Origin: an uncultured Bacilli bacterium
GTDB lineage: Bacteria; Bacillota_I; Bacilli_A; RF39; UBA660
NCBI GenBank assembly: GCA_944371445.1
Contig: CALVXR010000094.1
Location: 1-54,262, forward strand
DNA: 54,262 bases
Reading direction: 5' to 3'
Part shown: positions 7,203 through 37,601 of the stretch, in pieces
Layout: every line of letters starts with the position of its first letter
Numbering within the stretch: position 1 is the stretch's first letter
The notes under the pieces: model-generated
What the model was told of the DNA's origin: nothing
The model's input: the letters and a program-made list of their open reading frames with translations, nothing else
Database searches by the model: none
Made by a program: the position numbers and the translations under genes

Positions 7203-7212
7203 TTATTCCTCC

Positions 7213-8145
7213 TTAATCAATATTTTCTATATCTCGCCAATTTTCAGGAAATCCAATCCTATTTAATATACTTATGAGTGGAACAGTATCTACTTTTCCA
7301 TCTAATTTATCTATTTCATAGCTTATTTCCCCAATTAAATCAGAAAATTGTTCTTCTGTAAGCATTTGTTTCATTATAATAAGCACTGCAAACAAATCAT
7401 TTTTTCCATATATATATTCATCTTCTCTTTTATCAATATTTAAAATTTTATGATATCTTGTATCTGGTATTACTTTTTGTGTTCTATGATCATATAAAAT
7501 TTCTTCATGAGCACATAAGTTTCTAAAGTTAGATAGTATTGATAAATATACAGATAATGATTCTGGATCTATCTTATAAAATTTACTTATAATTTCTTTA
7601 TCTTCTTCTTTTAGTATATTATAAAATTCAGAAATAATACCAAAAGATAATACTTTTACAAGAATCCACATTGGTATATAACCATAATTGTTTATGTAGT
7701 GCATTGTTGCAGTATGTTGTAATCCATTAGTTCTAATTTGTCTTCTCATTTTATTAAGTACATCGTGTACTTGCCTTACTCTAAGAGTATCTTGAGTAAA
7801 ATTCTGTGGATTTAAATAATCTTTGTCTTTATGTCCATACTTTTTTGACATTTGATAACTGATTATTGATTTTATATTATTTTCGATTATAAGTATATGT
7901 TTAAACATTATATTTCTTAAATATCTATCAAAACAAAATGTTGCATATAGTTCTTCAAAAGTAGTTCCCTCTATAAAAATTTTATCTTTATTTGCTTTCA
8001 TAAATAAGTGTCTATAACCACTTATAAAAAAGTAGTTTTCCCTAAAAAGAAGCTCTTTTGTTTTTTCATAATCATTTATAGTAAGGCCTTTTTCTTTTAG
8101 AATATCTATTTGTTCATCTAATGTTTTAAAAATCTTTGTTCTCAT
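7213..8145 (-). CDS. Abi_2-family (AbiD/AbiF-like) abortive-infection protein
   Basis: 310 aa. Family-typical N-terminus (TLDEQIDILKEKGLTI.D..K..E.L.RENYFFISGY), F.FDR.LR, and C-terminal L.ILSNFRNLCAHEE.LYD. Confidence 0.82.
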   Translation of the reverse strand: MRTKIFKTLDEQIDILKEKGLTINDYEKTKELLFRENYFFISGYRHLFMKANKDKIFIEGTTFEELYATFCFDRYLRNIMFKHILIIENNIKSIISYQMSKKYGHKDKDYLNPQNFTQDTLRVRQVHDVLNKMRRQIRTNGLQHTATMHYINNYGYIPMWILVKVLSFGIISEFYNILKEEDKEIISKFYKIDPESLSVYLSILSNFRNLCAHEEILYDHRTQKVIPDTRYHKILNIDKREDEYIYGKNDLFAVLIIMKQMLTEEQFSDLIGEISYEIDKLDGKVDTVPLISILNRIGFPENWRDIENID

Positions 8146-8160
8146 ACTCTCACCACAATA

Positions 8161-8217
8161 ATTATATCACAAATAATATGAAAAAAATATGGAATTTTTA
8201 TGTGATTTTTGTGTGAT
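8161..8217 (-). promoter_or_regulatory. Putative promoter (extended -10) with ATCACA/TGTGAT hexamer repeats upstream of the Abi gene
   Basis: The - strand reads TGATATAAT (8169-8161), about 15 nt upstream of the RBS GGTGAGAG. ATCACA hexamers on the - strand at 8217-8212 and 8206-8201. An inverted copy overlaps the -10 (8166-8171 on +). Confidence 0.35.
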
Positions 8218-8224
8218 TTTACTA

Positions 8225-8920
8225 TTATGATAATTTATAATATTTAAGTATTCCTTCTGTTATAATGTTTGCTAGTGTCTGCTGATGATTATTTTGTTTT
8301 AATAGGTATCTATCGTTTGCGTTAGATAGAAAACCAGCTTCTACAAGAATTCCTAATTTTTCAACTTTTCTATGCAAGTATATATTTGTAAGTTCTTTTA
8401 CTTCCCTTGTCGTACTAAAATTATTTTTAAACTCTTTATAAATATAATCAGCTAATTTTTTATTTTCAGGATTTATATCATCATAAAATATTTGAGCACC
8501 TCTCCAGTTTTCACTATTTTCAGCATTTAAATGAATAGATATATACATATCAGTATCAGAATTATTTATTATTTCAATTCTTTTTGCTAAATCGCTTCTT
8601 TTTTTACTATTTGTATATTTTACAGATAAATCATAATCATCATATCTGGTCATATACACTATAGCACCTAGATTTTCCAAATTATTCTTTAGTTTTTTAC
8701 TTATAGAAAGATTAATATCTTTTTCCATTATATTTTTATACATTGCTCCTGGATCTCTTCCCCCATGTCCCGGATCAATATATATAACTTTTCCAATTAA
8801 TGGTAGGTTATTTTCTCTTCCAGTTACTGTATAAAAAGACATAAAGAATAATGTAAATAATAAAAACATAAATGTTTTATACTTTAACATATTATCACCT
8901 ATATAATTATATGTATACAA
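8225..8920 (-). CDS. cwlD: Germination-specific N-acetylmuramoyl-L-alanine amidase CwlD
   Basis: 231 aa. Signal/anchor, then GKVIYIDPGHGGRDPGA, YISIHLNA, W.GAQIFY and LVEAGFLSN. This is collinear with B. subtilis CwlD as I remember it. Confidence 0.88.
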   Translation of the reverse strand: MYTYNYIGDNMLKYKTFMFLLFTLFFMSFYTVTGRENNLPLIGKVIYIDPGHGGRDPGAMYKNIMEKDINLSISKKLKNNLENLGAIVYMTRYDDYDLSVKYTNSKKRSDLAKRIEIINNSDTDMYISIHLNAENSENWRGAQIFYDDINPENKKLADYIYKEFKNNFSTTREVKELTNIYLHRKVEKLGILVEAGFLSNANDRYLLKQNNHQQTLANIITEGILKYYKLS

Positions 8921-9021
8921 TAAAAATTACTAAACAAAAAATATTATGTTATATAGTTAATAATAGGTAATTTGATAAATTATTTAAAAAATATTTATTA
9001 CATTATTAATAAATAAAATAT

Positions 9022-9058
9022 AAAACCCCAATTCAATCTAATATTGAATTGGAGTTTT
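9022..9058 (-). terminator. Strong hairpin terminator closing the Tad-like operon
   Basis: 10-bp stem CCAATTCAAT (9028-9037) / ATTGAATTGG (9043-9052) with a 5-nt loop. T-tracts follow on both strands. Confidence 0.7.
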
Positions 9059-9103
9059 AAACTTCTTACTACTTAATTTACTTAATTAAATTCAATAATT
9101 TTA

Positions 9104-9580
9104 TTAATTTCCTAATATTCCCATTGTTTTTGTTTCACCATAAACGGGAAGTTCTAACAAAGATGAAATAATAGGTATTTCAAAATACATATAAGCTGTT
9201 ACACCATAAAATTTTTGCTCAATATCACCATTTTTAGTAGTGACTTCTTCTATACAGTATTTGTAATCGCTATTAGTTGAAACTGCCTTCCAATTAGTAT
9301 TGTGATTACTTCCAATCGAATAAGCATCCTTTTTATAATGATAATCATTATTAGAACATCCTTTGTTTGATATTCTATATCCAGTTTCTCCTAAAAATGT
9401 ATTTATTTGCTTTTGCGCTTCTAAAGTATATCCATTATTTTCTTCAATTATACTTATTATCCTATTTTTGACTTTATATGCTTTAGTATAATTTATTGAT
9501 CCAGCAAACAATACCAAAAATATAATTACAAATATTATTATAAGATTAACAATAAATGTTTGCCCAATTGCTTCTCTCAT
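9104..9580 (-). CDS. Prepilin-like membrane-anchored protein, paralog A (pseudopilin/TadE-like by architecture only)
   Basis: 158 aa. Short charged leader MREAIG, then a ~22-residue hydrophobic helix. Paralogous to 9592-10071, sharing GYRI, YCI.E, YGV..Y.Y..IP and PVY.ET plus two conserved Cys. Confidence 0.5.
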   Translation of the reverse strand: MREAIGQTFIVNLIIIFVIIFLVLFAGSINYTKAYKVKNRIISIIEENNGYTLEAQKQINTFLGETGYRISNKGCSNNDYHYKKDAYSIGSNHNTNWKAVSTNSDYKYCIEEVTTKNGDIEQKFYGVTAYMYFEIPIISSLLELPVYGETKTMGILGN

Positions 9581-9591
9581 GAAATCACCTA

Positions 9592-10071
9592 CTAAGTTCT
9601 AAATTTATATATTCTTTCTGTTTCTGAATAAACAGGAATTGCTAAATACTGGTTAAACATTGGAATATCCATATAAATGTATGTAACAACTCCATATGTA
9701 AAATAATTATCTTTGTCTTTTGGAAATTCATATATGCAGTATCTAAAATTTTGATTTCCATTACTACTATATGCTTTTGTCATAAGTCTACCTGTTTCAG
9801 TTTTTCCATCTTTTGTAGTATGAGTCCTTGTAGTTTTACATTTAGATGCTCCATTATTATCAATTCTGTAACCAAAAGTTGTTAAAAAATTGTTTATCTC
9901 TTTATATGCCAAATCATTATATCCTTCATGGTTTTCAATCGCATTTTCTATACCACTATTAACTTTAAATGCTCTCATATAATTCATTATTGCTGCTATA
10001 AACACAAATGTTAAAATTAAAAATATAATTATAAAATTTAACAAAAATGTAGTACCTATACTCTGTTTCAT
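9592..10071 (-). CDS. Prepilin-like membrane-anchored protein, paralog B
   Basis: 159 aa. Leader MKQSIG plus a hydrophobic helix, with the same conserved blocks and Cys pair as paralog A. RBS AAGGAG. Confidence 0.5.
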   Translation of the reverse strand: MKQSIGTTFLLNFIIIFLILTFVFIAAIMNYMRAFKVNSGIENAIENHEGYNDLAYKEINNFLTTFGYRIDNNGASKCKTTRTHTTKDGKTETGRLMTKAYSSNGNQNFRYCIYEFPKDKDNYFTYGVVTYIYMDIPMFNQYLAIPVYSETERIYKFRT

Positions 10072-10080
10072 TATAACTCC

Positions 10081-10866
10081 TTATAATTGCATCATTGACA
10101 TCATAGAGATTAATAAAAGGACTAGAATTCCACAACCTGTTGTACATAACATCATCATTGTTTTATTTTCCATTTTTTCTAATCTCTCCTTATATTTTTG
10201 TTCACGAGCTTTATTTTGTAGTGATGAAACAGTTCTAGCAAACATCATCAATTGCTCTTGTTTATTTTCTTGTGATCCTAAACCTAAACGATATAATAAA
10301 CGCATCATACGCATTGAATCACGTACTGGATATTCTTTAGCAAAATCCATATATGGATCAACAGATGAGTCACCTGCTTCTATTTTTGCGATTAATTTTT
10401 TTAATCCTGGAACAAAAATTTTTGGAGCAGTTGCTATAGAACGATTTATAGCAACTGGAACTGTATAATGCTGTACTAAAATCTCTAGACTCTTTAAATA
10501 ATAAGGTAACATTTGATTTATTGTATGTAAATTTTTCTTATAAAAAGATTGTAAATCCATATATTCTAACTTAAATACAACAAATCCAATTATTATAGCA
10601 ACTAAAACAGTAATAAAATTTAAATTTGACATTGAAAATACAAATAAAGATACAACTATTGCCAATAACCCATTAGTTATTCTCTTATTAAAACTAACAT
10701 TTATATCTTTTGATTCACCATATTTTAAACTAAACAAAAATTTATAATCGTCTTCCATTAAAAATTTAAATAATGGTTCAACATCTTGAATAAATTTTTT
10801 AGCATCTATATTTTTATTGTAAATTAATATGAAAAGTGTAATTACTAATATTACTATAAATTCCAT
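10081..10866 (-). CDS. TadC-like platform protein (single T2SSF-type domain)
   Basis: 261 aa. TM helices flank a cytoplasmic helical domain. Its start overlaps the upstream stop (TAATG). It lies next to the CpaF-like ATPase and a second such protein, as TadB/TadC do. Confidence 0.65.
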   Translation of the reverse strand: MEFIVILVITLFILIYNKNIDAKKFIQDVEPLFKFLMEDDYKFLFSLKYGESKDINVSFNKRITNGLLAIVVSLFVFSMSNLNFITVLVAIIIGFVVFKLEYMDLQSFYKKNLHTINQMLPYYLKSLEILVQHYTVPVAINRSIATAPKIFVPGLKKLIAKIEAGDSSVDPYMDFAKEYPVRDSMRMMRLLYRLGLGSQENKQEQLMMFARTVSSLQNKAREQKYKERLEKMENKTMMMLCTTGCGILVLLLISMMSMMQL

Positions 10867-11771
10867 TATTCAGCACCTACATTCTCATTATAATATTTTT
10901 CACCATTTAATAAAAATCCAGTATTAATAATTATGATTAGGTGTAATATAACTTGTATATACCAACTTTTTAACATATTTATATATGTATCTACTCCAAG
11001 TAAAAATTGAACTAACATAACCATTAAATACAATACTATACCAAATTGTAAGAATTTTTTATGGAAAGTAGCTCTATCTACTCTATCACGATATACATTT
11101 TCAACAAGCATATCTATATCTTGTGACATATTTTCAAGGGCTTCTCCTGCATCCCTTGAACCCTCATTAGTAATTTGAGTAAATAATTGATGCATATTTT
11201 TTACAATATAAAAGTCATATTTATTATTCATATAAGAAATTGATTCATCAATAGATCCATTTTCATATGCTAAATCAATCATAACTTTTACATCACTACG
11301 TACAGGATCTTCCAAAACACCTGACTCATAAACTCCTTCTAGAGATTTTACAAATGATTGAGTAGTAGCAAATTCCATTATAGTATTAGTAGTATATATT
11401 TGTATTTGCTCAAATATATATTCACTATAAATTCTTTTACATCTAAGATAAGTTAAATATGGAATTACAAGAATAGATATAAACATATAAACAATAGAAA
11501 TAATAAGATTATAAAAATATAGATAAGTTATGATAAAAGCACCTATAGAAAATACACAAATTTGAATTGTATATTGTTTTTTCGTATATTCCTGTCCTAG
11601 TTCTTTTACTTTTTTCCTTATTTCTTTATATGAATAAGGCATATATTTTTCGTATAAAAATGATGTTTTTCCAGAAACATACTTATATACACTTTCACCT
11701 TTACTACTTCTTGATGCCCATATAAAGATAATTATCAAAATTATTAACAATAACACTATAAAATCTAACAT
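10866..11771 (-). CDS. TadB-like platform protein (single T2SSF-type domain)
   Basis: 301 aa. N-terminal TM, two central TM helices, a helical cytoplasmic domain (..NEGSRDAGEALENMSQDI..) and C-terminal TM helices. RBS AGAGGTGA. Confidence 0.65.
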   Translation of the reverse strand: MLDFIVLLLIILIIIFIWASRSSKGESVYKYVSGKTSFLYEKYMPYSYKEIRKKVKELGQEYTKKQYTIQICVFSIGAFIITYLYFYNLIISIVYMFISILVIPYLTYLRCKRIYSEYIFEQIQIYTTNTIMEFATTQSFVKSLEGVYESGVLEDPVRSDVKVMIDLAYENGSIDESISYMNNKYDFYIVKNMHQLFTQITNEGSRDAGEALENMSQDIDMLVENVYRDRVDRATFHKKFLQFGIVLYLMVMLVQFLLGVDTYINMLKSWYIQVILHLIIIINTGFLLNGEKYYNENVGAE

Positions 11772-11788
11772 AACATCACCTCTTATCT

Positions 11789-13204
11789 TTAATATTTATC
11801 ACTACTATCATTGTACATTGAAATATTGGTATTATTCACTTTATTAAAAATTTGATTATTATTAACTCCTATATTTTCTTGATTTGTCGGTATATTCTGT
11901 TTTTTTTCTAAATCTTGATTATTGTATAAATTATTCATAGGGATTGGTTGTTTATTTTGTACTTGAATATTTTGATTATTGTATAAGTTATTAGCAGGAA
12001 TTGATTGTCTACTTTGTGTTTGAATATTTAAACTACTATTATTTTGATTATTTGAAGTAGCTAAATCGTTATTCAAGAAAATATTATTAATTACAGGATT
12101 ATCTTTTTGTAAATTAACTTCTTGTGCAACAGAAGATACTTTTGTTTCTGATTCATTAATAAGATTTTCTGGCAAAACAACACCTTGTGCATCTAAATAA
12201 TCTATTAAATATTTAGATGGTTTTTTTCTTGTGACATGCCCTGTTGTTGTCTTTCTATAAATGACATTATACTCAGCTTTGTTATCTTCTGTAACATAAA
12301 ATTCTGTTACTTCTGCTATTTCTCTTCTAAATCTTTTTGTCTCTTTATCTTGATATCCTCTTATATATACACCTAATTGAACATATCTATAAATTGATTT
12401 TAAAAACTGGTCTATTTCTTGATTTGTCTCCAACAAACTATACATACGATTAGGTATAGAAGCAGCCTTATCAGCATGAATAGTTGATAAAATATAGTGA
12501 CCTGATGAAATTGAGTTTCTAACTGCTAAAACTGCCTCAGCACTACGAACTTCCGAAAGTAAAATCCATTTAGGATTTTGTCTCATACATGTTACTAAAA
12601 CCTCAGAATATGATGCTATATTATTAGTTTTCATTGTAACTATATCTCTATGTGGAAAAATTTTATCTAAATGAAGTTCAAGAGTATCTTCTATAGTTAT
12701 TATTTTTTCATTTTCTTTTGTATGAGCAGCTAAATATTTTATAAATTCTGTTTTTCCTGAACCAGTTTCACCACAGGCAATTATATTACAATGTCCTTGT
12801 ACACAATATATCAAAAAATCATGTATATCAAGATCAATATATTTATCTGCTAAAAGTTTATCTTTTTCTAGTCTTATTTTTGCTGGTGTTTTACGTATAA
12901 CAACTGCTATACCATTACGTGCAATAGATTCATGAACAAAATTAAGACGAAGTTCATCACCTTCGGCATCCAAAAATGGCTGAGCCATATTGAATGCCTT
13001 CCCCATAACATTTGAACATTGAAAAGCTAATTTTTCCATGAATGAATTGTTTATTTTTTCATCTTCTATTCTATATAAGCCTCTTGATAGTGTTTTAATC
13101 CAAACTTGTCCACCATTACTATATGAAATATCGGTTACATCATCATTTTCTAAATATGGTTTTAATGCCCCAAAATCTATTTGGGCAAACATTCCATCAT
13201 TCAT
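11789..13204 (-). CDS. CpaF/TadA-family (VirB11-like) secretion ATPase with an Asn/Gln-rich C-terminal tail
   Basis: 471 aa. Contains VTDISYSNGGQVWI, VIRK, Walker A GETGSGKT, ITIEDT.EL, MRQNP..ILLSEVRS.EA and GH..LSTIHA. The last ~110 aa are low-complexity N/Q-rich. Confidence 0.88.
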   Translation of the reverse strand: MNDGMFAQIDFGALKPYLENDDVTDISYSNGGQVWIKTLSRGLYRIEDEKINNSFMEKLAFQCSNVMGKAFNMAQPFLDAEGDELRLNFVHESIARNGIAVVIRKTPAKIRLEKDKLLADKYIDLDIHDFLIYCVQGHCNIIACGETGSGKTEFIKYLAAHTKENEKIITIEDTLELHLDKIFPHRDIVTMKTNNIASYSEVLVTCMRQNPKWILLSEVRSAEAVLAVRNSISSGHYILSTIHADKAASIPNRMYSLLETNQEIDQFLKSIYRYVQLGVYIRGYQDKETKRFRREIAEVTEFYVTEDNKAEYNVIYRKTTTGHVTRKKPSKYLIDYLDAQGVVLPENLINESETKVSSVAQEVNLQKDNPVINNIFLNNDLATSNNQNNSSLNIQTQSRQSIPANNLYNNQNIQVQNKQPIPMNNLYNNQDLEKKQNIPTNQENIGVNNNQIFNKVNNTNISMYNDSSDKY

Positions 13205-13209
13205 AAAGC

Positions 13210-14061
13210 TTAATTTACCTTTTCTACTGAATTATTATTTAATAAATTATCTTTTTGCATTTCTTCTTCTGCTTTTATTTCATCATTAGGTACTGTTTTA
13301 GCATTTATAAAGTCTTGTAATGTTTGTGAACTTACTATTGTTGCATTTTCTTCTTCTTCAGCATCTAAACTTGTTCCGTGTGGAACTGGAAATAATTCCA
13401 CTGAATAGCTTGATAAATAGCTTGCTTTTCTAAGTAAAATATTCATATTTTGATCTAATGCGAATATTAAGAACGCAGGTATTCTACTTTCAGTAGTATT
13501 TTCAAAAACATGTTTTCCTTCTGCATCCTTTACGGCTAATACTTTTACATTTTCAAGTAATTTACCAACCATAATTTGTCCAGCATCATTTTCAGCTTTC
13601 ATATATAAGTCTATATAATTTCCTGGGAATATTGAATTTCCATAAGTAGAATCTAAAGTTACTGGGAAATTATATGGTACTTTACCTTCTGGAATATCAA
13701 CAAAAGCTGCATCTGGTAAATCATCTTCTGTTATAACTGCTTCACGATAAAACATACTTCCTTTTGGTATAATTGTATTATAATTACTATACTTTCCAAC
13801 TACTGCTGCAGCTGTTGTATATACATTATTAGGCACTGCTTTGCTAGCCATATCTATATATGTTATTAAATCATCTGTAATTTTTGTTCTTGGTTGAATA
13901 GTCTCAGCTGCTACGGGAATATTTGGAACAGGTTCAATTGCATTATTTACTTGAATTTTATAACCAATGAACAGTACAGCAACTATTGCTACTACTCCTA
14001 AAATTGTAACTGTATTTTTATTTTTAAATAACCTTTTTAAAGACATTTGTAAATTTTTCAT
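13210..14061 (-). CDS. CpaB-like Flp-pilus assembly protein (N-terminal anchor, SAF/RcpC-like domains)
   Basis: 283 aa. TM anchor, then VPVAAETIQPRTKITDDL...VGKY....IPKG and ...PGNYIDLYM...VKVLAV. This layout is typical of CpaB, with an acidic tail. Confidence 0.7.
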   Translation of the reverse strand: MKNLQMSLKRLFKNKNTVTILGVVAIVAVLFIGYKIQVNNAIEPVPNIPVAAETIQPRTKITDDLITYIDMASKAVPNNVYTTAAAVVGKYSNYNTIIPKGSMFYREAVITEDDLPDAAFVDIPEGKVPYNFPVTLDSTYGNSIFPGNYIDLYMKAENDAGQIMVGKLLENVKVLAVKDAEGKHVFENTTESRIPAFLIFALDQNMNILLRKASYLSSYSVELFPVPHGTSLDAEEEENATIVSSQTLQDFINAKTVPNDEIKAEEEMQKDNLLNNNSVEKVN

Positions 14062-14085
14062 ATAATCCTCTCCTTTTTATCTTTA

Positions 14086-14499
14086 TTAATATGGTGTTTC
14101 TAAAATTGCATCTAATTTATTTGATAATTGAACCTCTACTACTTCTTTTCCCTGTTCTTTAGAAACATTTGATTTAACTTTTGTTCTCACCTCTAAACTA
14201 ACTTTAGGTGGTGTCTCATTTACATCATAAATACTAATTTCATATGTATTACTTAAAGAAGCACTTTCAGCAAATCTTCTTACAAAATTCTCTACGAATT
14301 TTTCTCGATTAATTTTAATAACACCACTTTGTCTATATGCATTTAAATCTACTGCATCATACATAGCTGCTTCTGTTACTTCTCTAACCAATGTATAATT
14401 CTGTTCACTTGTATTAGTAAGAGTTTGAAAAAAGAATATAAATGCAATTGCGGTAACACCTATTGTTATTATTAGTATTCCCCAAAACGACTCTTTCAT
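14086..14499 (-). CDS. Prepilin-like small membrane-anchored protein (third member)
   Basis: 137 aa. Leader MKESFWG followed by a hydrophobic helix, then a soluble ~100-aa domain. RBS AAGGAGAG. Confidence 0.45.
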   Translation of the reverse strand: MKESFWGILIITIGVTAIAFIFFFQTLTNTSEQNYTLVREVTEAAMYDAVDLNAYRQSGVIKINREKFVENFVRRFAESASLSNTYEISIYDVNETPPKVSLEVRTKVKSNVSKEQGKEVVEVQLSNKLDAILETPY

Positions 14500-14513
14500 T
14501 TAAACTCTCCTTT

Positions 14514-16958
14514 CTAATAACGGCATCCTTCAAATTCACTTCCTGTTTTTTGATAACATGCACTAGCATTTTTATCAACACCGTAAGCACCTGAAGGGTC
14601 TTTTAAAAATTCACTTAAACATTCTGAACCATCTTTTTGACCATTGATATTTTTTCCATAGCATTTTAAATTAAAATCTTGATATCCACCATATTTTAAT
14701 CTTGAACGATTATAGTTTATAATTGCTCTAGTATTTGCTGGTGTTAAGACAATTTTATATAATGGCTCTTTCTTACTATATACATCCTGTGGATTACTTA
14801 AACCTCTGTTATTCAATATTTTAGCTTTTACTAAATCTCTACTATTCCAATTTGCACCCGGATATCTACCATTTACATCTAAGTTAAATCCTGTAATTCC
14901 TGCTTTTAAATCTTTACTAGGAAATGGATTTCTAAGTGAAATAGTTCTATATATGATATTTAAATTTCCCCCTTCTGGATTTTCTCCAGATGGGCAAACA
15001 ATATCTTTACAATAATTTATAGCTTGTGATTCAGAAAAACCTTTTGCAATCATTTCTTCAACACATCCTGTAATATCCATCCATTCTGTAGTACCATCAT
15101 CTTTATTTCTTGGGCACTCATATTCTGGAGGATTTCCAGTACAATATTTATCAACACAACTTTGATATGTATTTCCTGCATTAACACATTTTTCAACACT
15201 TATATGTTGATAAGGTTCAGGACAATATTTAGGTTTATCTTCACATATTAAATCAGTTGGATCTAATGTTACATCATTACAATATTTTTCAATTTCTGTT
15301 GGACAATTTTCTCCGCCACTATTTGCTACTTTACACCATAAATCTTCTCCTGCATGTTCTGTTCCAGGTGGACAAATACATGGAGCTGGTTTATCATTGG
15401 TTACTTCGTAATTACATACATAATCTGATAAAGCATCATTTGCTACAGAATTAAATATTCCTTTTGAACCAATTTTAAAATCATATAATTGCATTGTTTT
15501 TTTACCAGTAATAGTTTCATTTAGTGATACAGGTAAAATTCCGTTATTGTATGTTATTATATCTTCATCATTTCCAGTTTTCTTACTAGAATATTTTTTA
15601 GTTGATGTATTGTAATATCTATATAATTCATCTGGTAATTTTAATGACACTTTTCTTTCAGCAATTAGATCTTCATCATATTTGTATCCTGTTAGATTGT
15701 AATATTCGTCTTTAGTATATACATGACCTGTAGAACTTTTAATATCTAGTGTTTCACTATCAAATTTGTATTCTTTGTCATTATATTTTATTTTAATATT
15801 TGTTTCAAAATTATCATATAATTCATCTATATTAGGAGTATATCCTCCACAAGAATTACCAACTTTTGTACATAACCTTCTACCAACTATATTTAACTGA
15901 TGTTTATCATTTATTGAAGTTCCAAATGATGGCCATATAAAATATCTACCTACATTTACAGCTGGAAGAACATTACCTGGAAGTTCCATCTCTACAGTTT
16001 CTCTACAATATATTTTACAATCAGAATTTACTTGTTTAACTAATCTTCCATATTGACTAGCATTTTCTACTTTTTCCCCAGAATCACAGTCTGTCTTTTC
16101 AAAAGTCTCGTAAAAATTTATTTTGTTTCCTTTGTTAGTATTTGTACATTTAAGTTGTCCTGGATTTGCTTTTGTAACAAATTTGTAACAACTATTAAAA
16201 ATTTTCTCTGGTGGGTTTATAATATTATAACCATAACCATGTCTTTGATCTGCTATTAAACTAACATCATTTGTTTGATTTTTTTGATGTGCAGTAATTC
16301 CTATATCATCTAAATCTGTACTTAATAATGTACTTTGATTTGCCCATCGATCTGGGTTTGAAGTACCACCATACTTTCTAAATACTTCTTTTATGGTCAT
16401 AAGTTTAAGCGCACCTGTTTTTGGTAAAGCAAACTGCCATATTGGCTCAATCAAAAACCTATAACCTTGACTATTATAATTTATTTTAGAATCAGATGGT
16501 AAAGTTAAAGAGGCAGGATTTACACCCATATCATCTAATAGCTCAAGTGAGTGTTCTTTTCCATCTTTTCCTGTATAATACTCTTTTAACCATGCATCAT
16601 CATAATAACATGGTTCATATGGTCCAGCTTTATCTTTTTTACAGGTATTTATATTTAAATTATAAATTACCTTATTACCACTTTTTTCAAGTAAATCTTT
16701 ATATTTAGTACTATTAACTATATATACAGGGTTACCAATCTTATTCCAATTAGTTCCATCATAGTAAATTAGCTCTATTTGTACAGCAGTAAAATGTGTA
16801 TTATCCCACGTACATGGATATTTAAATCTGGGACTACATGTACCTACACCTGGAACAGATCCTCCTCCGGTTCCATTATAATCTGCTTTTACTATTTCAA
16901 TATTAAAAGCACAAAATGTAATTAACATTACAAATACAATTTTAAAGTAATTTTTCAA
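14514..16958 (-). CDS. Large secreted cysteine-rich protein of unknown function
   Basis: The longest ORF starts with GTG at 16967. A TTG at 16958, 8 nt after GGAGG, is the likelier start and gives a Sec signal peptide MKNYFKIVFVMLITFCAFNIEIVKA. About 30 Cys in the mature protein, no C-terminal anchor, no family recognised. Confidence 0.75.
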   Translation of the reverse strand: MKNYFKIVFVMLITFCAFNIEIVKADYNGTGGGSVPGVGTCSPRFKYPCTWDNTHFTAVQIELIYYDGTNWNKIGNPVYIVNSTKYKDLLEKSGNKVIYNLNINTCKKDKAGPYEPCYYDDAWLKEYYTGKDGKEHSLELLDDMGVNPASLTLPSDSKINYNSQGYRFLIEPIWQFALPKTGALKLMTIKEVFRKYGGTSNPDRWANQSTLLSTDLDDIGITAHQKNQTNDVSLIADQRHGYGYNIINPPEKIFNSCYKFVTKANPGQLKCTNTNKGNKINFYETFEKTDCDSGEKVENASQYGRLVKQVNSDCKIYCRETVEMELPGNVLPAVNVGRYFIWPSFGTSINDKHQLNIVGRRLCTKVGNSCGGYTPNIDELYDNFETNIKIKYNDKEYKFDSETLDIKSSTGHVYTKDEYYNLTGYKYDEDLIAERKVSLKLPDELYRYYNTSTKKYSSKKTGNDEDIITYNNGILPVSLNETITGKKTMQLYDFKIGSKGIFNSVANDALSDYVCNYEVTNDKPAPCICPPGTEHAGEDLWCKVANSGGENCPTEIEKYCNDVTLDPTDLICEDKPKYCPEPYQHISVEKCVNAGNTYQSCVDKYCTGNPPEYECPRNKDDGTTEWMDITGCVEEMIAKGFSESQAINYCKDIVCPSGENPEGGNLNIIYRTISLRNPFPSKDLKAGITGFNLDVNGRYPGANWNSRDLVKAKILNNRGLSNPQDVYSKKEPLYKIVLTPANTRAIINYNRSRLKYGGYQDFNLKCYGKNINGQKDGSECLSEFLKDPSGAYGVDKNASACYQKTGSEFEGCRY

Positions 16959-17004
16959 ATGGTTCACCTCCCAATTATAACCATTAGTCTAATACCTTTA
17001 CACT

Positions 17005-17023
17005 ATTATAACACATTATACCA
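17005..17023 (-). promoter_or_regulatory. Possible internal promoter: two tandem extended -10 elements upstream of the Cys-rich gene
   Basis: The - strand reads TGGTATAAT (17023-17015) and TGTTATAAT (17013-17005), in the only sizeable intra-operon gap (16968-17050). Confidence 0.35.
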
Positions 17024-17050
17024 TTTTTTTTCATTTTTTTCACTATAACT

Positions 17051-17689
17051 TTAAAACAATGAACTTTCTTTTTTTCTTTTCCAAATAATAAAGGAAATTA
17101 GACTAATTATAAATAATGGCAATATTATATAATAATAATTTAAATAGAATCTAAATAATTTATCATAAAACCCTAATTGTTCTTCTTTTTTATTATTTTC
17201 TTCATTATCTTTAAGGCTATTTTTATAATCTTCTACTAATTTAACTATCTCTTCCGCACTATAATTATATTTTGTCCATTTTTGACAAAATTTTTGTTCT
17301 TCTAAACCATTACAAATGGGATCTTTATACCATTTATTATATCCTGGAAACGTAAAATATTTAGATAATACATTACTTCCAGAGCAAGCTGGTAAATTTG
17401 AATAAAATTTAAATCTATAACTTTCATTTGGATTATATCCATACAATATGATTTCACTTGAAGAATAATAATATACATTTCCACTTCGTAAATCTTTAAA
17501 ATATAATAAAGGAGATAAATTAGAAATTATTAAATTATATTTTTCAGTATTTTCATCAAATATTGGTGTAAATTTTACATTACTTGCAAGTTTATTCATT
17601 TTCACTATTTCCTGATCTGTGCAAGATGCACTTACAGCATTAGGAAAAATAAATAACAAACATAGTAAAATAATTAATTTCTTTTTCAT
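17051..17689 (-). CDS. Secreted, C-terminally anchored protein of unknown function
   Basis: 212 aa. Signal peptide MKKKLIILLCLLFIFPNAVSA, five Cys after the signal-peptide region, and a C-terminal TM helix followed by KRKKE. RBS AGGAGGA. Confidence 0.7.
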   Translation of the reverse strand: MKKKLIILLCLLFIFPNAVSASCTDQEIVKMNKLASNVKFTPIFDENTEKYNLIISNLSPLLYFKDLRSGNVYYYSSSEIILYGYNPNESYRFKFYSNLPACSGSNVLSKYFTFPGYNKWYKDPICNGLEEQKFCQKWTKYNYSAEEIVKLVEDYKNSLKDNEENNKKEEQLGFYDKLFRFYLNYYYIILPLFIISLISFIIWKRKKESSLF

Positions 17690-17698
17690 ATTCTCCTC

Positions 17699-19270
17699 CT
17701 ATTTTAAATAATATTTGTAAATTTTTTCCCTTATATTAAATTCTATCCATATCCTGTTAGCATTTACTATATCTCGGTTCGCTTCTATATAATAGACATC
17801 TTTTTGATTAGTATCATTTGGAATAACATAATTAAAGTTATCTATACTATTTACTGAATTATTTATACTATAATAAATAACTCCATAATTATCAAGTAAG
17901 CTAACAAAATTATTTATTTTTTTATTTTTACTATCTAAGAAACTAGCTTCTATTTTAAGTAAAGCTTTATCTAAATTTCCAGAGAAAGATGGATATACAT
18001 ATTCACTTGATAATACACAATCATTTTCTTTAATACAATAATTATAATTATTTTTAAATATTGTATTTACTTGATATGAGTTGATTTTCAAAGTACCACT
18101 TTTTAATATTGTTTTACTTAAGTCTATTGAAGTACCTAAGTTTACCTCTTTAATTTCTGTTTCTCCTTCTACTTTTTCAGGATTTACTTTTATCTTTGTC
18201 TCCTTTATACCATCTTTTTTATAAACAATATACATATTATAATTTATAAAACTATTAGGTACCTCATAAATTAACATATATTCTACAGGATTATTATTTA
18301 TTTTTTCTTTATTATAACCTACCCCTAAATCATAAAATCTATTAATATAATTTTTATTATGGTAAAATTTTTGACCATTTATTTCTAATGGTAAAAAAGT
18401 AGGTTCCAAATATTCTTCTTCTCCAAACATATTATTAATACGAAAATTTATTAACACATAAGTTTTTAATTTGTTTTCGTTTCCATAAATATCTTTATTG
18501 GTATATAAACTACTATTAAATGTTACAGAAAAATTACCAATTTCAACATTTTCACCTAGTTTATAAACTTTATTAACTACTTTTATATTGAAAATAATTA
18601 AACCAAAAATTATTATAAATAAAGCAATGCTTGATATAGTTATTAACAATTTATTTTCAATAATAACATATTTAAGATTTCTTTTAAATTTATTTAAATT
18701 TCTTTTAAATTTACCTTCCTCAAATTCTACATTAAATTCAAATTCTTCATTATCATTTGCTTTAATATCTAAATCTTCTAGATCTTTTGAAAAATCAAAT
18801 TTTTTGAAATTAAATCCTATTCCTCTAATTATATTTATAACAGTACAAACACTTTGAAGAATTAACATTGTATTAATTAAATCTTGATTTAATTTTAAAG
18901 TACGCACATCTATTAAATTTATTTCAAGAGAAATAAAAGTATTTGTTACATAATAATATAAAATAATTGAAACAAAGCAGATCAATATACTTATAAAGTA
19001 AAAAGTTATAGGTTTTTTCTTATATCTCATTAATAAAAGTATAATTGTATAACCAATAATTAATAAAAATAGTAAGAAAATTATAACTATAGGAATAGTT
19101 TCTTTGACAAATTCAGGAGTCAATAGTGATACTGGTGAATCAATGTATTCATTAAAAAATAAAGATATGTTATATATTTTAAAAACAATATAACATAAAA
19201 TAGCACTAAATATTAAATGGATTAGCTTGAAATTCTTAATTAAAAACGCATATGGTTTTCTAAGTATCAT
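17699..19270 (-). CDS. Polytopic membrane protein with a large extracytoplasmic beta-rich domain (unknown function)
   Basis: 523 aa. About 4 N-terminal TM helices, a charged linker, one further TM, then a ~300-aa Asn/Tyr-rich domain. It is the first gene of the operon. RBS AAAGGGG. Confidence 0.7.
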   Translation of the reverse strand: MILRKPYAFLIKNFKLIHLIFSAILCYIVFKIYNISLFFNEYIDSPVSLLTPEFVKETIPIVIIFLLFLLIIGYTIILLLMRYKKKPITFYFISILICFVSIILYYYVTNTFISLEINLIDVRTLKLNQDLINTMLILQSVCTVINIIRGIGFNFKKFDFSKDLEDLDIKANDNEEFEFNVEFEEGKFKRNLNKFKRNLKYVIIENKLLITISSIALFIIIFGLIIFNIKVVNKVYKLGENVEIGNFSVTFNSSLYTNKDIYGNENKLKTYVLINFRINNMFGEEEYLEPTFLPLEINGQKFYHNKNYINRFYDLGVGYNKEKINNNPVEYMLIYEVPNSFINYNMYIVYKKDGIKETKIKVNPEKVEGETEIKEVNLGTSIDLSKTILKSGTLKINSYQVNTIFKNNYNYCIKENDCVLSSEYVYPSFSGNLDKALLKIEASFLDSKNKKINNFVSLLDNYGVIYYSINNSVNSIDNFNYVIPNDTNQKDVYYIEANRDIVNANRIWIEFNIREKIYKYYLK

Positions 19271-19359
19271 ATTATCTACCCCTTTATTCTATATATAGTA
19301 TAACCTAAAAATAAAAAAAAAAAAAGTAATTTACGATTTTTTCATAAATATACTCGTTA

Positions 19360-20010
19360 TTATGTAAATATATTAAATGGATATCTACTAGGCAAATCAA
19401 GGCTAAATTCCATATATTCTTTTTTTATCGGGTGTATAAAACCTATTGTTTTAGAAAAAAGTGCAATTTGTATACCTTTTTTAGTATTTTTATTATATTT
19501 TTGGTCTCCTACTAGAGGTAATCCTCTATCTGAAAATTGAACTCTTATTTGATGCGATCTTCCTGTTTCTAATTTTATTTCGACTAAACTTTTACCTTCT
19601 TTATATTTTAAAACTTTATAATATAAGGTAGCTTCTTTCCCATTTTTATCAACTTTAACTATATTATTTTTTTTGTCTTTTAGAAGTCTATCTTTGAATA
19701 TTCCTTCTTTAGGTTCTAATTTACCATCTATTACTGCATAATATATTTTTTTTAATTTTTTTTCTCTTATCTCATTAGATAGTCTTGATGCCGCTTTACT
19801 TGTTTTAGCAAATACCATTATTCCGCCTACTGGTCTATCCAATCTATGAACTAAACCTAAATAAACATTACCTTCTTTGTTATACTTTTCTTTTAAATAT
19901 TCTTTGATAATTGTAATCATATCTTTATCTTTGCTAATATCTTCTTGTACAGGAATATTAGGCTTTTTTTCAACAACTATAATATGATTATCTTCATATA
20001 TTATATTCAT
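19360..20010 (-). CDS. RluA-family pseudouridine synthase
   Basis: Contains the HRLDRPVGG motif and SHQIRVQ. The ATG at 20010 forms an ATGA overlap with the upstream stop, whereas the longest ORF starts at a TTG at 20037. Confidence 0.9.
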   Translation of the reverse strand: MNIIYEDNHIIVVEKKPNIPVQEDISKDKDMITIIKEYLKEKYNKEGNVYLGLVHRLDRPVGGIMVFAKTSKAASRLSNEIREKKLKKIYYAVIDGKLEPKEGIFKDRLLKDKKNNIVKVDKNGKEATLYYKVLKYKEGKSLVEIKLETGRSHQIRVQFSDRGLPLVGDQKYNKNTKKGIQIALFSKTIGFIHPIKKEYMEFSLDLPSRYPFNIFT

Positions 20011-20873
20011 TGTTCCCATCTTCCATATATACCACAAGGAAGTAGCATATTATCTTTTTCTATTGGAAGTGCTACTTCACCGGCTGTTATCTTGCCATTT
20101 GGGTACTTTTTAAGTAATGTTGTCTTCAAAATGTTCTCAAGGACTATACTAGAAATTCCTGTTGTATAAGAGTTAATTGTGAAGAATAAAGGATTATCAC
20201 TTAATATCTTAATACATTCTGTAATTAAATTGTAAATATTTTGTTCAAATTTCCAAACTTCTCCATTAGGTCCTCTTCCATAACTAGGAGGATCCATTAT
20301 AATCGCATCGTATTTATGTCCTCTTCTAAATTCTCTTTGTACAAATTTAAGGCAATCATCAACTATAAATCTTATTTTATTATTTTCTAAATGTGACAAA
20401 TGCATATTCTCTTTAGCCCATTCAGTCATTCCTTTAGAAGCGTCAACATGAACAACTTCTACGGCTCCCGCTTTAGAACATGCCATAGTAGCAGCGCCTG
20501 TATAAGCAAATAAATTTAAAACTTTTATTTCTCTACCAGAATTTCTGATTTTATTCATCATAAAATCCCAATTTACAGCTTGTTCTGGAAATAAACCTGT
20601 ATGTTTAAAATTAGTTGGAGATACTTTAAAAGTTAAATCTTTATAATCTATAGTCCAAGAATCTTTTAACTTAGTATAAAAGTTCCAATATCCGCCACCT
20701 TTATTGCTTCTTATATAATGACCATCTACGTTTTTCCATTTTTCATCATAAGTTGCGTTCCATATTGCTTGAGGGTCTGGTCTTCTAAGTATAACACCTT
20801 TCCATGATTCTAATTTTTCTCCACCACCTGCATCTATTATTTTATAGTCTTTCCATTCATTACTAATTTTCAT
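20007..20873 (-). CDS. Class I SAM-dependent rRNA methyltransferase (RlmI/RlmK-like)
   Basis: 288 aa. Contains LNLFAYTGAATMA (SAM motif I) and IIMDPPSYGRG. Confidence 0.82.
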   Translation of the reverse strand: MKISNEWKDYKIIDAGGGEKLESWKGVILRRPDPQAIWNATYDEKWKNVDGHYIRSNKGGGYWNFYTKLKDSWTIDYKDLTFKVSPTNFKHTGLFPEQAVNWDFMMNKIRNSGREIKVLNLFAYTGAATMACSKAGAVEVVHVDASKGMTEWAKENMHLSHLENNKIRFIVDDCLKFVQREFRRGHKYDAIIMDPPSYGRGPNGEVWKFEQNIYNLITECIKILSDNPLFFTINSYTTGISSIVLENILKTTLLKKYPNGKITAGEVALPIEKDNMLLPCGIYGRWEQ

Positions 20874-20910
20874 AAAATCACCTACAGTTATTTTAACATA
20901 TTTTAATATA

Positions 20911-20940
20911 TAATAAAAGAAGCTTATTTATCAGCTTCTT
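20911..20940 (-). terminator. Hairpin overlapping the ftsH stop codon
   Basis: AAGAAGCT (20917-20924) / AGCTTCTT (20933-20940), with a T-rich tail on the - strand. Confidence 0.45.
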
Positions 20941-22915: not shown

Positions 22916-22929
22916 TAATATCTCCTTTC

Positions 22930-24255: not shown

Positions 24256-24327
24256 ATTATCACTTCCTAGCTAAAATATATTTTATCAGTGTTTATATAA
24301 AAGTACAAGCTAAATAACTTATTATAT

Positions 24328-24356
24328 AAAAAGTAGACACGTTTTTTTATGTCTAC
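24328..24356 (-). terminator. Rho-independent terminator after the ung/kinase-like pair
   Basis: GTAGACA (24333-24339) / TGTCTAC (24350-24356), followed by T5 on the - strand. Confidence 0.6.
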
Positions 24357-32063: not shown

Positions 32064-32463
32064 TCTCCTTTTTAATTATTGGTTTAATTACTATATTATC
32101 TATTATATGTCTCATTATTGATATTAATATAGCTACTATAAAACTCATAAAAATTCCTCTAATTATAAAGTGTTTTCCTAATATAAAGTGTACTATATGA
32201 AGAATAAATACATTTATAAAAGGATAAAATAGTCCTAAAGTTAAAGCTGTTATTGGAATAGTAAGCCATACTATAACAGGTTTTATTGTTTTATTTAGAA
32301 TATGTATTATAAAGGATGCAATAAATCCATATAATCCATAGTTAGAGTTATCTATATAAATTGTTTTAGGAAATATTATTGATACTGCTATTAAAATAAG
32401 TCCATAACAAAATATTGAGATAAATAATTCAAATAAAAATCTTATTATTTTATTAACTTTCAT
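32050..32463 (-). CDS. Phage-holin-family-4 (YvlD-like) membrane protein
   Basis: 137 aa with 4 TM helices and the motif LTIPITALTLGLF..FINV. Its position near uvrB/lgt matches the Bacillus yvl region. Confidence 0.65.
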   Translation of the reverse strand: MKVNKIIRFLFELFISIFCYGLILIAVSIIFPKTIYIDNSNYGLYGFIASFIIHILNKTIKPVIVWLTIPITALTLGLFYPFINVFILHIVHFILGKHFIIRGIFMSFIVAILISIMRHIIDNIVIKPIIKKENGYE

Positions 32464-37499: not shown

Positions 37500-37601
37500 T
37501 TAATAATTTATAATTTTTGATTTTATTTAATTTTTATTTGGTAATTTTTACCATTTGTTTTTTATTTATAATTAGTGTATGTTAAAAATGAGGTGGTAAA
37601 A

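Follow-up and report, generated by a model that had tools for sequence, protein, structure and literature searches.

A divergent, probably Tad-like type IV filament module near the replication origin of an uncultured gut Bacilli bacterium and its relation to monoderm type IV secretion systems

Introduction

Which machine is encoded by an operon that unites a filament-type ATPase, a membrane platform and pilin-like proteins with three large envelope proteins of no recognizable family? This question is raised by a ten-gene locus in contig CALVXR010000094.1 (assembly GCA_944371445.1) of an uncultured Bacilli bacterium of the RF39 lineage, the whole 54,262 nucleotides (nt) of which are referred to here as the window. 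The genes, named W1 to W10 in order of transcription (Table 1), had been described earlier, in a reading of the DNA without database searches (the original prediction), as a Tad/type-IV-filament-like operon with a non-canonical gene set in a monoderm spore-former. The answer that we consider fairly probable is that the ten genes form one operon, which encodes a divergent assembly module for a Tad-like type IV filament in a low-GC gut bacterium with a cell wall and a single membrane. The window carries the stand-alone short form of this module, which in most relatives is joined to a type IV secretion system (T4SS). Gram-positive conjugation systems are generally described without a pilus or a similar structure (PMC11730352; PMC8557374), and the locus family considered here suggests a concrete lead on how such systems bridge the thick wall and find a partner. 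A literature search for RF39 together with pili or secretion systems returned no description of the module.

ATPase, platform and assembly subunits

The ATPase W6 matches the T2SSE family (PF00437) at 2.8e-26, with 92.5 bits against a cut-off of 24.9. Among the NCBIfam models it reached VirB11 (TIGR02788; 4.7e-32, 111 bits), the TadA conjugal ATPase (TIGR03819; 2.1e-28, 99.5 bits against a cut-off of 373) and, with lower scores, FlaI (82 bits) and ComGA (78 bits), all of them far below the curated cut-offs. Compared with PDB sequences, it scored 69 bits for FlaI, 65 for CpaF and 58 for VirB11. The best tblastn matches on plasmids belong to pLS20-family conjugative plasmids of Bacillus and to a plasmid of Priestia koreensis, and W6 is 30-33% identical to the VirB11-like ATPases of the former and the CpaF/VirB11 protein of the latter. 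Judged by its sequence, W6 is thus predicted to be a deep member of the CpaF/TadA-FlaI-VirB11 group of hexameric-type secretion-superfamily ATPases, in agreement, as far as the group goes, with the CpaF/TadA-type ATPase proposed at the outset, its nearest families being FlaI, CpaF and VirB11. Its C-terminal ~120 residues (11789-12150) are of low complexity and rich in asparagine and glutamine (32 and 14 of 120, respectively), and loose repeats of the form IPxNNLYNNQ occur in this tail. The length of the ATPase in relatives ranges from 359 to 489 amino acids (aa), mostly due to tail variation.

The adjacent genes W7 and W8 had been proposed as two TadB/TadC-like platform proteins. Direct searches gave no Pfam match (PF00482 included) and no PDB profile match for either of them. 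A full-library search with W7 returned 225 relatives at E<1e-3 among 1.84 billion representatives, and T2SSF was matched by two of 20 full-length distant relatives (best 6.3e-4). The diverse W7 profile includes fused relatives of ~490-500 aa; W7 aligns to its positions 4-296 and W8 to its positions 272-511 (E 1.1e-22, 69.5 bits), the latter still at 1.5e-22 after removal of W7 and its close relatives. With close-relative alignments (effective number of sequences, Neff, 1.6), hhalign showed no relation between W7 and W8, which is seen only via the diverse profile. The AlphaFold2 (AF2) model of W7 has a predicted local distance difference test score (pLDDT) of 82 and a predicted template modelling score (pTM) of 0.72, and Foldseek gave one specific match, the cytoplasmic domain of EpsF (2vmb_B; probability 0.90, template modelling (TM) score 0.63 on the target, root-mean-square deviation 3.6 Å). 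Likewise, the Prokaryotic Genome Annotation Pipeline (PGAP) lists the W7 homologue of P. koreensis as a 'type II secretion system F family protein'. As these alignments cover the two halves of the fused proteins, W7 and W8 correspond to the N-terminal and the C-terminal half, respectively, of a split two-domain PilC/GspF-type platform. The fused-relative profile, the T2SSF-matching relatives and the EpsF superposition accordingly bear out the two platform proteins, of which W7 takes the TadC-like and W8 the TadB-like position, with an overlap of 1 nt. The same logic of platform fission was reported for TadC/TadB (PMC6668835).

W4 matches DUF5411 (PF17424) at 5.1e-52 and consists of an N-terminal anchor, i.e., MKESFWG and a transmembrane helix, followed by a small globular domain. 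Its identity across relatives amounts to 64-86%, and it is the conserved signature subunit of the system family, treated here as an assembly subunit. A pilin identity of W4 was rejected, as hhalign against W9/W10 matched only the N-terminal 23-residue anchor. W5 features an N-terminal transmembrane helix with SAF-like and RcpC-like regions. It scored 3.1e-6 for RcpC (PF16976; 27.5 bits against a cut-off of 28.8), 0.0045 for SAF and 1.7e-11 for CpaB (TIGR03177; 43.9 bits against a cut-off of 71), and its profile had no match among PDB sequences. W5 is therefore put forward as a sub-threshold, predicted CpaB/SAF-type bitopic protein; the CpaB-like anchored protein of the original prediction holds in kind, although below the curated cut-offs. 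Taken together, the ATPase, platform and CpaB/SAF-like assignments bear out the core of a Tad-like type IV filament (TFF). By the generic TFF definition, such a system comprises an ATPase, an inner-membrane platform and a major pilin, with the peptidase possibly encoded elsewhere (Denise et al., 2019); in the window, W6 is the T2SSE-domain ATPase and W7/W8 lie beside it as the platform.

Pilin-like proteins and missing Tad parts

W9 starts with the leader MKQSIG, which precedes a hydrophobic helix of ~22 residues and a domain of ~110 aa with two conserved Cys. W10, with the leader MREAIG, is its paralogue and 41% identical to it (alignment A10). Across 62 homologues the leader follows M-[KR]-[EQ]-x-x-[GAS], and class III signal peptides require a small residue, as is found at its last position. 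The pair is kept after the platform genes in relatives. TadE (PF07811) was matched by none of the 62 homologues and DUF4320 by one, at 0.008. On these sequence features, W9 and W10 are candidate minor pilins or pseudopilins. Of the three prepilin-like proteins that had been counted originally, W9 and W10 are hence convincing, whereas the DUF5411 protein W4 shares just the N-terminal anchor, in which the Gly of MKESFWG is not invariant.

Three components expected in a Tad locus had been reported missing, and the wider searches agree. Beyond the three proteins named above, no small pilin-like open reading frame (ORF), and thus no Flp-size pilin, is present in the 54 kb; no polytopic ORF of the window bears the GxGD-type motif of A24 peptidases, and no prepilin peptidase was found among the Pfam-scanned flanking genes; TadZ is absent from the operon, with no ParA/TadZ-like protein among the Pfam-scanned flanking genes. 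The 163 related loci, like the window, are devoid of any A24-like polytopic ORF bearing a GxGD-type motif, so that an unlinked prepilin peptidase, or none, is a family trait. The gene set is non-canonical in that these parts are absent from the window, but it has to be regarded as a lineage-specific short form, since most relatives carry a pilin of 57-100 aa and a protein of ~330 aa.

Relatives and the association with type IV secretion

Relatives were gathered by a scan with the DUF5411 alignment, one genome being taken per species, which revealed them in at least 351 species genomes, mostly of uncultured gut Bacilli/Mycoplasmatota; the best 80 of these were examined for gene order. These 80 are uncultured gut metagenome-assembled genomes (MAGs) labelled Bacilli, Tenericutes, Mollicutes or Candidatus Faecisoma (Mycoplasmatota incertae sedis), and one relative is a circular genome of 1.2 Mb. 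With these labels, the size of that genome and no sporulation-specific family among the Pfam-scanned window genes, the idea of a spore-former finds no support. Among the 80 loci (individual loci are given as L numbers where needed), the order W1-W8 is kept almost everywhere, and all ten genes occur in the same order in dozens of genomes. In most relatives, W8 is followed by a further gene, X9, then by W9 and W10, by X12 and by a T4SS.

X9 (57-100 aa) begins with MKEAAG/EANMTV(V/I)TIILIG..., has a short Cys-rich tail and features the same leader type as W9/W10. It is Flp-sized, but without the Flp motif G/xxxxEY and without a match to the Flp family. In examples such as L001 (13194-13415) and L084 (2705-2926), its N-terminus MKEAAGEANMTV(V/I)TIILIG is near-invariant and its tail follows the pattern CC...C...C. 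The number of exported Cys-rich proteins, X9, W2 and W3 among them, is unusual for an anaerobic Firmicute-type organism. X12 is a cytoplasmic protein of ~330 aa with a P-loop-like KQSGATT stretch. This motif is the sole point in favour of X12 as a TadZ; X12 matches nothing in Pfam or the PDB and does not resemble the ParA-like proteins of P. koreensis.

The T4SS beside the module comprises one to three T4SS_pilin-type genes, TrbL/VirB6, a VirB3-like protein, a TraC-like N-domain with the VirB4 ATPase, a wall hydrolase (SpoIID-like, or M23 with NlpC/P60), a protein of 215-260 aa and VirD4 (T4SS-DNA_transf, 3.6e-57). Downstream of it, L084, L092, L100 and L110 have ORFs whose starts look alike; in L084, the one locus for which Pfam was run on this part, a rhodanese and a VTT/DedA protein are among them. 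In L084 and L110, no relaxase was seen among those ORFs beyond X18 that were scanned with Pfam. In a search anchored on the T4SS, of the 40 metagenome loci whose upstream part was long enough, ~35 had Tad-like genes directly upstream, as counted from the gene-order table, while the T4SS of L148, L150, L160 and L161 had no adjoining Tad-like genes. Thus, the Tad-like module and the T4SS form a conserved supercluster, yet they are separable. The opposite separation is seen in a small subclade composed of the window and its four closest relatives, L012, L019, L046 and L052, in which the operon ends at W10, without X9 (the gap between W8 and W9 is 9 nt), X12 or a T4SS. The same amidase follows downstream throughout this subclade, as do Abi_2 and HtrA where the locus reaches that far. 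L020 and L029 end even earlier, at W8. A tblastn search of the window with X12 to X18 of L001, including the TraC-like N-terminal part of VirB4, which marks every T4SS, gave nothing credible, and neither VirD4 nor a relaxase was found among the Pfam-scanned window genes.

Some further arrangements were observed in the related loci. In L148 (127-7246) and L150, an array of seven secreted Cys-rich proteins replaces the Tad-like module. The T4SS half of the long form (e.g., L084 4931-7298 and 16879-18735) holds one to several T4SS_pilin (PF18895)-like genes besides secreted Cys-rich proteins with a pilin-like hydrophobic C-terminus, and resembles the VirB2-like arrays of Patescibacteria (PMC12102498). 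A polytopic gene product of ~785-805 aa (MKSKIKWLL...DLGAQYQYLF...) is encoded by an insertion that parts the second platform gene from the pilin genes in some relatives, such as L078 (14378-16732) and L100 (1276-3699), and L078 has two tandem 58-aa pilin genes without the Cys-rich tail.

The pLS20 family was represented by the operon of plasmid pBatNRS213 (OK210094.1; L164), with a search space of 28 proteins. This operon encodes, in order, the Tie adhesin, a 65-aa protein, a 126-aa protein (gene 36), a VirB11-like ATPase (37), proteins of 267 aa (38) and 245 aa (39) and a DUF4320 protein of 120 aa (40); several proteins of 47-78 aa, two of 363 aa, VirD4, VirB6, proteins of 103 and 192 aa, VirB4, VirB8 and VirB1 follow. 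The DUF5411 profile found gene 36 at 3.4e-5, W6 found gene 37 at 7e-41 (30% identity), the diverse W7 profile found genes 38 and 39 at 1e-19 and 3.5e-6, respectively, and the W8 profile found gene 39 at 7.7e-5, while the match of the W9/W10 profile to the DUF4320 gene 40 was weak (0.023). Genes 36-40 are hence colinear with the core of the window, with homology for four of the five genes (L164 10402-13927). Judging from these profile matches, the VirB11-like ATPase and its flanking genes form a sub-module common to both, which is not proof that the window encodes a T4SS. Likewise, they suggest that genes 36, 38, 39 and 40 of pLS20 may represent a type-IV-filament-like sub-module inside a Gram-positive conjugation operon. 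In the literature, genes 36 and 38-41 of the family are listed as 'Unknown' and the system is described without pilus homologues (PMC8557374); an incomplete full-text search found no publication linking pLS20 with Tad, TadB, GspF or PilC, which is absence of evidence only. Placement of the ATPase and the platform proteins in a conjugative T4SS had been named beforehand as a ground for abandoning the original prediction. The outcome goes partly in this direction: the nearest annotated ATPases are the VirB11-like proteins of the pLS20 family, their neighbours are colinear and a complete T4SS with a coupling protein abuts the module in most relatives.

Envelope proteins

The topology reading of W1 gives four N-terminal transmembrane helices, a conserved acidic cytoplasmic loop (~149-205), a fifth transmembrane helix and an extracellular, beta-rich part of ~290 aa. 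A DUF4352/Ig-like signal is weak (0.0038; present in four of 34 relatives, best 7.9e-5), and the single match of its profile in the PDB is a Cna-type adhesin at E 0.05. W1 is the first gene in most related loci. It was rejected as a novel prepilin peptidase, having no GxGD-type motif and an invariant D130 that, by the same topology reading, lies in a predicted outside loop. W2 is composed of a signal peptide, an ectodomain with four conserved Cys and a C-terminal transmembrane anchor; of 72 homologues, 95% or more retain P16, C23, C102, C126 and C135, and nothing significant was found in Pfam or NCBIfam. W3 has a Sec signal, is Cys-rich and secreted or surface-located. Its N-terminal two thirds are variable, its C-terminal ~150 aa are conserved (NIIYRTISLxNPFP...GRxPGxNWN) and its homologues measure 680-1284 aa. 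A profile of 32 homologues matched neither Pfam nor the PDB, and Foldseek found nothing at E<1e-3 in the PDB or BFVD with an AF2 model of mean pLDDT 64.8. In pLS20-type operons the place of W3 is taken by the Tie adhesin, and in P. koreensis by an Ig-like protein; W3 has no detectable homology to either, and by its position it is a candidate adhesin or filament-associated protein. In direct Pfam and NCBIfam scans of W1, W2, W3, W7, W8, W9 and W10 nothing was significant, and PDB-sequence profile searches for W1, W3, W5, W7, W8, W9/W10 and X12 yielded nothing usable. Accordingly, the earlier statement that three large envelope proteins cannot be placed stands, W1-W3 being without a significant match in Pfam or the PDB.

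A different function has to be considered here, namely that a pseudopilus drives the secretion of the Sec-exported, Cys-rich W3, and perhaps of W2, through the thick wall in the manner of a type II secretion system (T2SS), with no long adhesive pilus being formed. Secretion of the T2SS type is not known to be established in any monoderm, which counts against this explanation; most relatives moreover encode a subunit of major-pilin size, and nothing ties W3 to export by the machine. On the other hand, the short form keeps only minor-pilin-like proteins, as endopilus systems do, the operon always includes W3 with its Sec signal, and a related Clostridial operon was classed as secretion-related by Miller et al. 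(2022). On balance, secretion of this kind is regarded as improbable.

Selection and divergence of the operon

Selection was estimated by the ratio of nonsynonymous to synonymous divergence (dN/dS) against L019 and L012, with dS being saturated. The lowest values were obtained for W7 (~0.10) and W8 (~0.12), followed by ~0.2 for W4, W5, W6 and W9/W10, and higher ones for W1 (~0.37), W2 (~0.46) and W3 (~0.62). W1-W10 are under purifying selection, and W1-W3 are fast-evolving. With all ORFs intact and dN/dS of ~0.10-0.2 in the core, the short form looks functional. These results bear on the notion of an evolutionary remnant, by which the pilin, X12 and the T4SS have disappeared from the lineage, the ten genes being in decay or without filament function. 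Although the major pilin, X12 and T4SS genes were not found within the 54 kb and L020 and L029 stop at W8, none of the ten ORFs is disrupted, the core dN/dS lies at 0.1-0.2, at saturated dS, and at least four further species-level genomes share the short form. Besides, a T4SS apart from Tad-like genes exists in L148, L150, L160 and L161, so that partner genes may be located elsewhere. A remnant is thus very improbable.

The comparison of L019 (CALXJE010000019.1) with window positions 7000-24400 revealed the operon as an island of divergence. The flanks share 92-97% nucleotide identity upstream and 90-91% downstream, the flanking proteins are 94-99% identical and dS amounts to 0.27-0.35 (tilS, ftsH, methyltransferase). 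Across the operon, nucleotide identity is 50-86% and dS 0.8-1.3, with intermediate dS in the boundary genes (RluA-like 0.56, amidase 0.76, Abi_2 0.55). Fast protein evolution is not the whole explanation, because the synonymous sites are far more diverged too. The island points to whole-operon replacement by recombination, or to a long-lived polymorphism. Such a pattern would be common at loci for exposed surface structures and, being expected of one, it is counted in favour of the Tad-like filament module.

Proposed function and points against it

In the proposed mechanism, W6 would drive the platform, which would lift W9 and W10, plus X9 where present, out of the membrane. Stacking of W9/W10 could then give a short filament or pseudopilus spanning the cell wall, after an unlinked peptidase has trimmed their leaders behind the small residue. 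W1, W2 and W3 would represent the surface-exposed, fast-evolving parts, W3 being likely adhesive, as a tip- or filament-associated cargo. The ancestral role was probably filament-assisted cell-cell contact for a DNA- or protein-transfer machine, which in the lineage of the window was probably reduced to contact or adhesion alone.

Several points weigh against a filament module of this kind. The window has no major pilin and neither it nor the 163 loci have a prepilin peptidase, so that filament assembly and leader cleavage remain putative. W9 and W10 match no pilin family, TadE or PDB entry; the CpaB and VirB11/TadA scores lie under the curated cut-offs; and the Foldseek E-value of W7 with EpsF is poor (1.9), despite the TM score on the target. 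The adhesin role of W3 is read from position and evolutionary rate, its structural model being mediocre and matching nothing. Moreover, the short form may depend on genes outside the 54-kb contig.

A farther-reaching proposition is offered tentatively, i.e., that a class of monoderm T4SSs has the Tad-like module as an integral half, so far overlooked, which builds a filament; this class would comprise the pLS20 family and the chromosomal, relaxase-less clusters of uncultured gut Bacilli with reduced genomes. If this were true, the 'pilus-less' Gram-positive transfer systems would make a pilus or pseudopilus of type-IV-filament type for mating-pair formation or wall penetration, and the window would show the filament half kept alone, as a hypervariable surface organelle that recombines between close lineages. 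For the uncultured, reduced-genome gut Bacilli, the locus represents a conserved, fast-diversifying surface apparatus near oriC, which may mediate contact with other cells.

Operon layout and genomic setting

The ten co-oriented, tightly packed ORFs lie exactly where they had been reported (Table 1). Their spacing from W1 to W10 is 9, 83, 14, 24, 5, 17, -1, 9 and 11 nt, the overlap being formed by TAATG, which agrees with the small gaps claimed before. Two details of the layout had to be amended. Ribosome-binding sites of the GGAG/AGGAG/GAGG type precede most genes and not every one, the site of W6 (aaaagg) being weak and the start of W3 ambiguous; the terminator is present and strong, but its stem is longer than the 10 bp first assigned. 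W3 starts with GTG, or with TTG three codons in, the latter being more likely because the database protein P0391 has 814 aa. An extended -10 promoter-like site in the W2-W3 gap is a possible internal promoter, as judged by its consensus match.

Table 1. Position and description of the operon genes and associated signals in the window
Feature	Position	Strand	Description
W1	17699-19270	minus	523 aa ORF, first in transcription order
W2	17051-17689	minus	212 aa ORF
W3	14514-16967	minus	817 aa ORF (814 aa if TTG start)
W4	14086-14499	minus	137 aa ORF
W5	13210-14061	minus	283 aa ORF
W6	11789-13204	minus	471 aa ORF
W7	10866-11771	minus	301 aa ORF
W8	10081-10866	minus	261 aa ORF
W9	9592-10071	minus	159 aa ORF
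W10	9104-9580	minus	158 aa ORF
Intrinsic terminator closing the operon	9021-9059	minus	17-pair stem (one G-T), 5-nt loop, T-run
Promoter-like site in the W2-W3 gap	17015-17043	minus	GTGAAA, 17 nt, TATAAT, upstream TG; consensus match only

The window has a G+C content of ~25%, and its GC skew switches sign near 46 kb, beside ORF 46031-47392, which is taken to be dnaA by its position. The W1-W10 locus is chromosomal and ~27-37 kb from oriC, as its neighbours are housekeeping genes. By Pfam, tilS, ftsH, a S-adenosylmethionine (SAM) methyltransferase and an RluA-type synthase flank it on one side, and an Amidase_3 enzyme, Abi_2, HtrA, a polysaccharide deacetylase, a short-chain dehydrogenase/reductase (SDR) and a P-type ATPase on the other; ung, ksgA, whiA, trxB, lgt, uvrB, parB, rsmG, mnmG, mnmE and jag are found further along the window. 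A mobile-element origin of the locus was rejected in view of the housekeeping flanks and the presence of the same flanks in the closest relatives. In addition, W7 had no plasmid match and DUF5411 no IMG/VR match.

Further observations concern the surroundings of the operon. Directly downstream of the operon, the Abi_2 (abortive-infection-like) gene (7213-8145) has the amidase on one side and HtrA on the other, and it holds the same position in L012, L019 and L074. A TnpV transposon-protein gene (597-947) adjoins a 102-aa Amidase_3 fragment (973-1281), which resembles a truncated copy of the family that is intact at 8225-8920. The ParB homologue (35304-37415) has 703 aa, with the ParB N-terminal and helix-turn-helix (HTH) domains within the first ~200 residues and no Pfam family at E<=1e-5 in the remaining ~500. 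Likewise, ORFs 24356-25615 (419 aa, minus) and 37575-38063 (162 aa, plus) had no Pfam match at E<=1e-5, the latter being, to the left of oriC, the sole ORF of 100 aa or more on the plus strand that is not contained in a larger minus-strand ORF. A Phage_holin_4_2 membrane protein (6.7e-15; 32050-32463) lies between lgt and uvrB in the housekeeping stretch.

Comparison with known systems

The Tad/Flp systems (type IVc; Cpa of Caulobacter, Tad of Aggregatibacter) share with the window the CpaF-group ATPase, the two adjoining single-domain platform genes, the predicted CpaB/RcpC-like protein and small pilin-like proteins downstream, and Tad can occur in monoderms without a secretin (PMC6668835). 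Unlike Tad, the window has no pilin with the Flp motif, no TadV, no TadZ and no TadE/TadF matches, with all curated scores below their cut-offs, while its family features DUF5411, three orphan envelope proteins and the association with a T4SS. The tad locus of Bulleidia (PMC12786226) was rejected as kin, being a canonical and unrelated Tad locus.

A stand-alone locus without a T4SS is present on a plasmid of P. koreensis FS-1 (NZ_CP061869.1, 157-170 kb; L165). It encodes, in order, an Ig-like protein of 993 aa, DUF5411, SAF, a ParA-like protein of 274 aa, CpaF/VirB11, a T2SSF-family protein, a W8-like protein and a W9/W10-like protein of 128 aa. Profiles of W4, W5, W7 and W8 matched in this locus at 1.2e-7, 1.9e-37, 1.8e-14 (1.9e-39 with the diverse W7 profile) and 1.3e-15, respectively, and BLASTP of W6 found its CpaF/VirB11 at 1e-55; the match of the W9/W10 profile to the 128-aa gene is weak (2.9e-4). 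Upstream of the DUF5411, SAF, ATPase and T2SSF genes (L165 2897-4979), two ORFs are annotated as 'hypothetical'. One of them, of 493 aa, combines a receiver-like and a ParA-like part and resembles TadZ by motif reading alone. The other, a polytopic ORF of 172 aa with ITDVKELKTYN and SPGDTKM, resembles TadV/A24 by its D...YN and GDxK motifs, and a PDB search with it returned nothing. The TadZ-like, ParA-like and TadV-like ORFs have no homologue in the window or its relatives, and the locus differs further in being plasmid-borne and without homologues of W1 and W2.

This locus is relevant to the most conventional explanation, by which the operon encodes an ordinary Tad (type IVc) adhesion pilus that functions independently of a T4SS, while flp, tadV and tadZ are located at other sites of the genome. 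The CpaB-like protein, the CpaF-group ATPase and the two single-domain platform proteins are hallmarks of Tad, prepilin peptidases are often unlinked or shared (PMC6668835), and the P. koreensis version stands alone with its TadZ- and TadV-like ORFs, as far as motif reading goes. Nevertheless, the pilin X9 of the relatives lacks the Flp motif and no TadE or Flp matches were obtained; the equivalog scores are far below the cut-offs, W6 fitting CpaF no better than FlaI or VirB11; W1-W3 and DUF5411 are not Tad components; T4SS adjacency is near-universal in relatives, and the core is colinear with a conjugation operon. An ordinary Tad pilus is consequently considered unlikely.

Operons with DUF5411, CpaF, PilC and internalin-like genes in Roseburia, Ruminococcus and Eubacterium were predicted to encode an uncharacterised membrane machinery (Miller et al., 2022, PMC9523054). 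They have in common with the window DUF5411, the CpaF-type ATPase, a PilC/GspF-type platform, very small hydrophobic proteins and a large surface protein. The Clostridial versions differ in possessing one 434-aa PilC-like platform gene family instead of two split ones, in their internalin-like and CpaD-like proteins and in having no reported link to a T4SS. The DUF5411 systems, so far machine-learning predictions in Clostridia (PMC9523054), thereby gain a third variant, with a split platform, a CpaB-like protein and three orphan envelope proteins.

Patescibacteria possess relaxase-less, chromosomal T4SSs of the mating-pair formation (MPF) FATA type with VirB2-like pilin arrays near dnaA (PMC12102498). 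The long form of the relatives is similar in that the genomes are reduced, the T4SS is chromosomal and includes T4SS_pilin (PF18895)-type genes, and its cluster has no relaxase, and the operon of the window likewise lies near oriC. In contrast, the report on Patescibacteria makes no mention of a Tad-like module (PMC12102498), VirB11 occurs there in the diderm-type system only and the window holds no T4SS genes.

The pLS20 family is similar in having a large adhesin (Tie) upstream of the common sub-module, and VirD4, VirB6, a VirB3-like protein, VirB4, VirB8 and VirB1 downstream, as in the long form of the relatives. It is a plasmid system with a relaxase, whereas the window is chromosomal, near oriC and without a T4SS or relaxase seen in its 54 kb; pLS20 lacks the CpaB/SAF gene as well as W1 and W2, and Tie is unrelated to W3. 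If the divergent Tad-like filament module is read correctly, a type-IV-filament module lies within or beside monoderm T4SSs, both on the pLS20 plasmids and, in hundreds of uncultured gut species, on the chromosome, and genes 36 and 38-41 of pLS20 gain names and testable roles in a tractable host. Accordingly, the locus matters more for the monoderm T4SSs and for genes 36-41 of pLS20 than as an isolated oddity.

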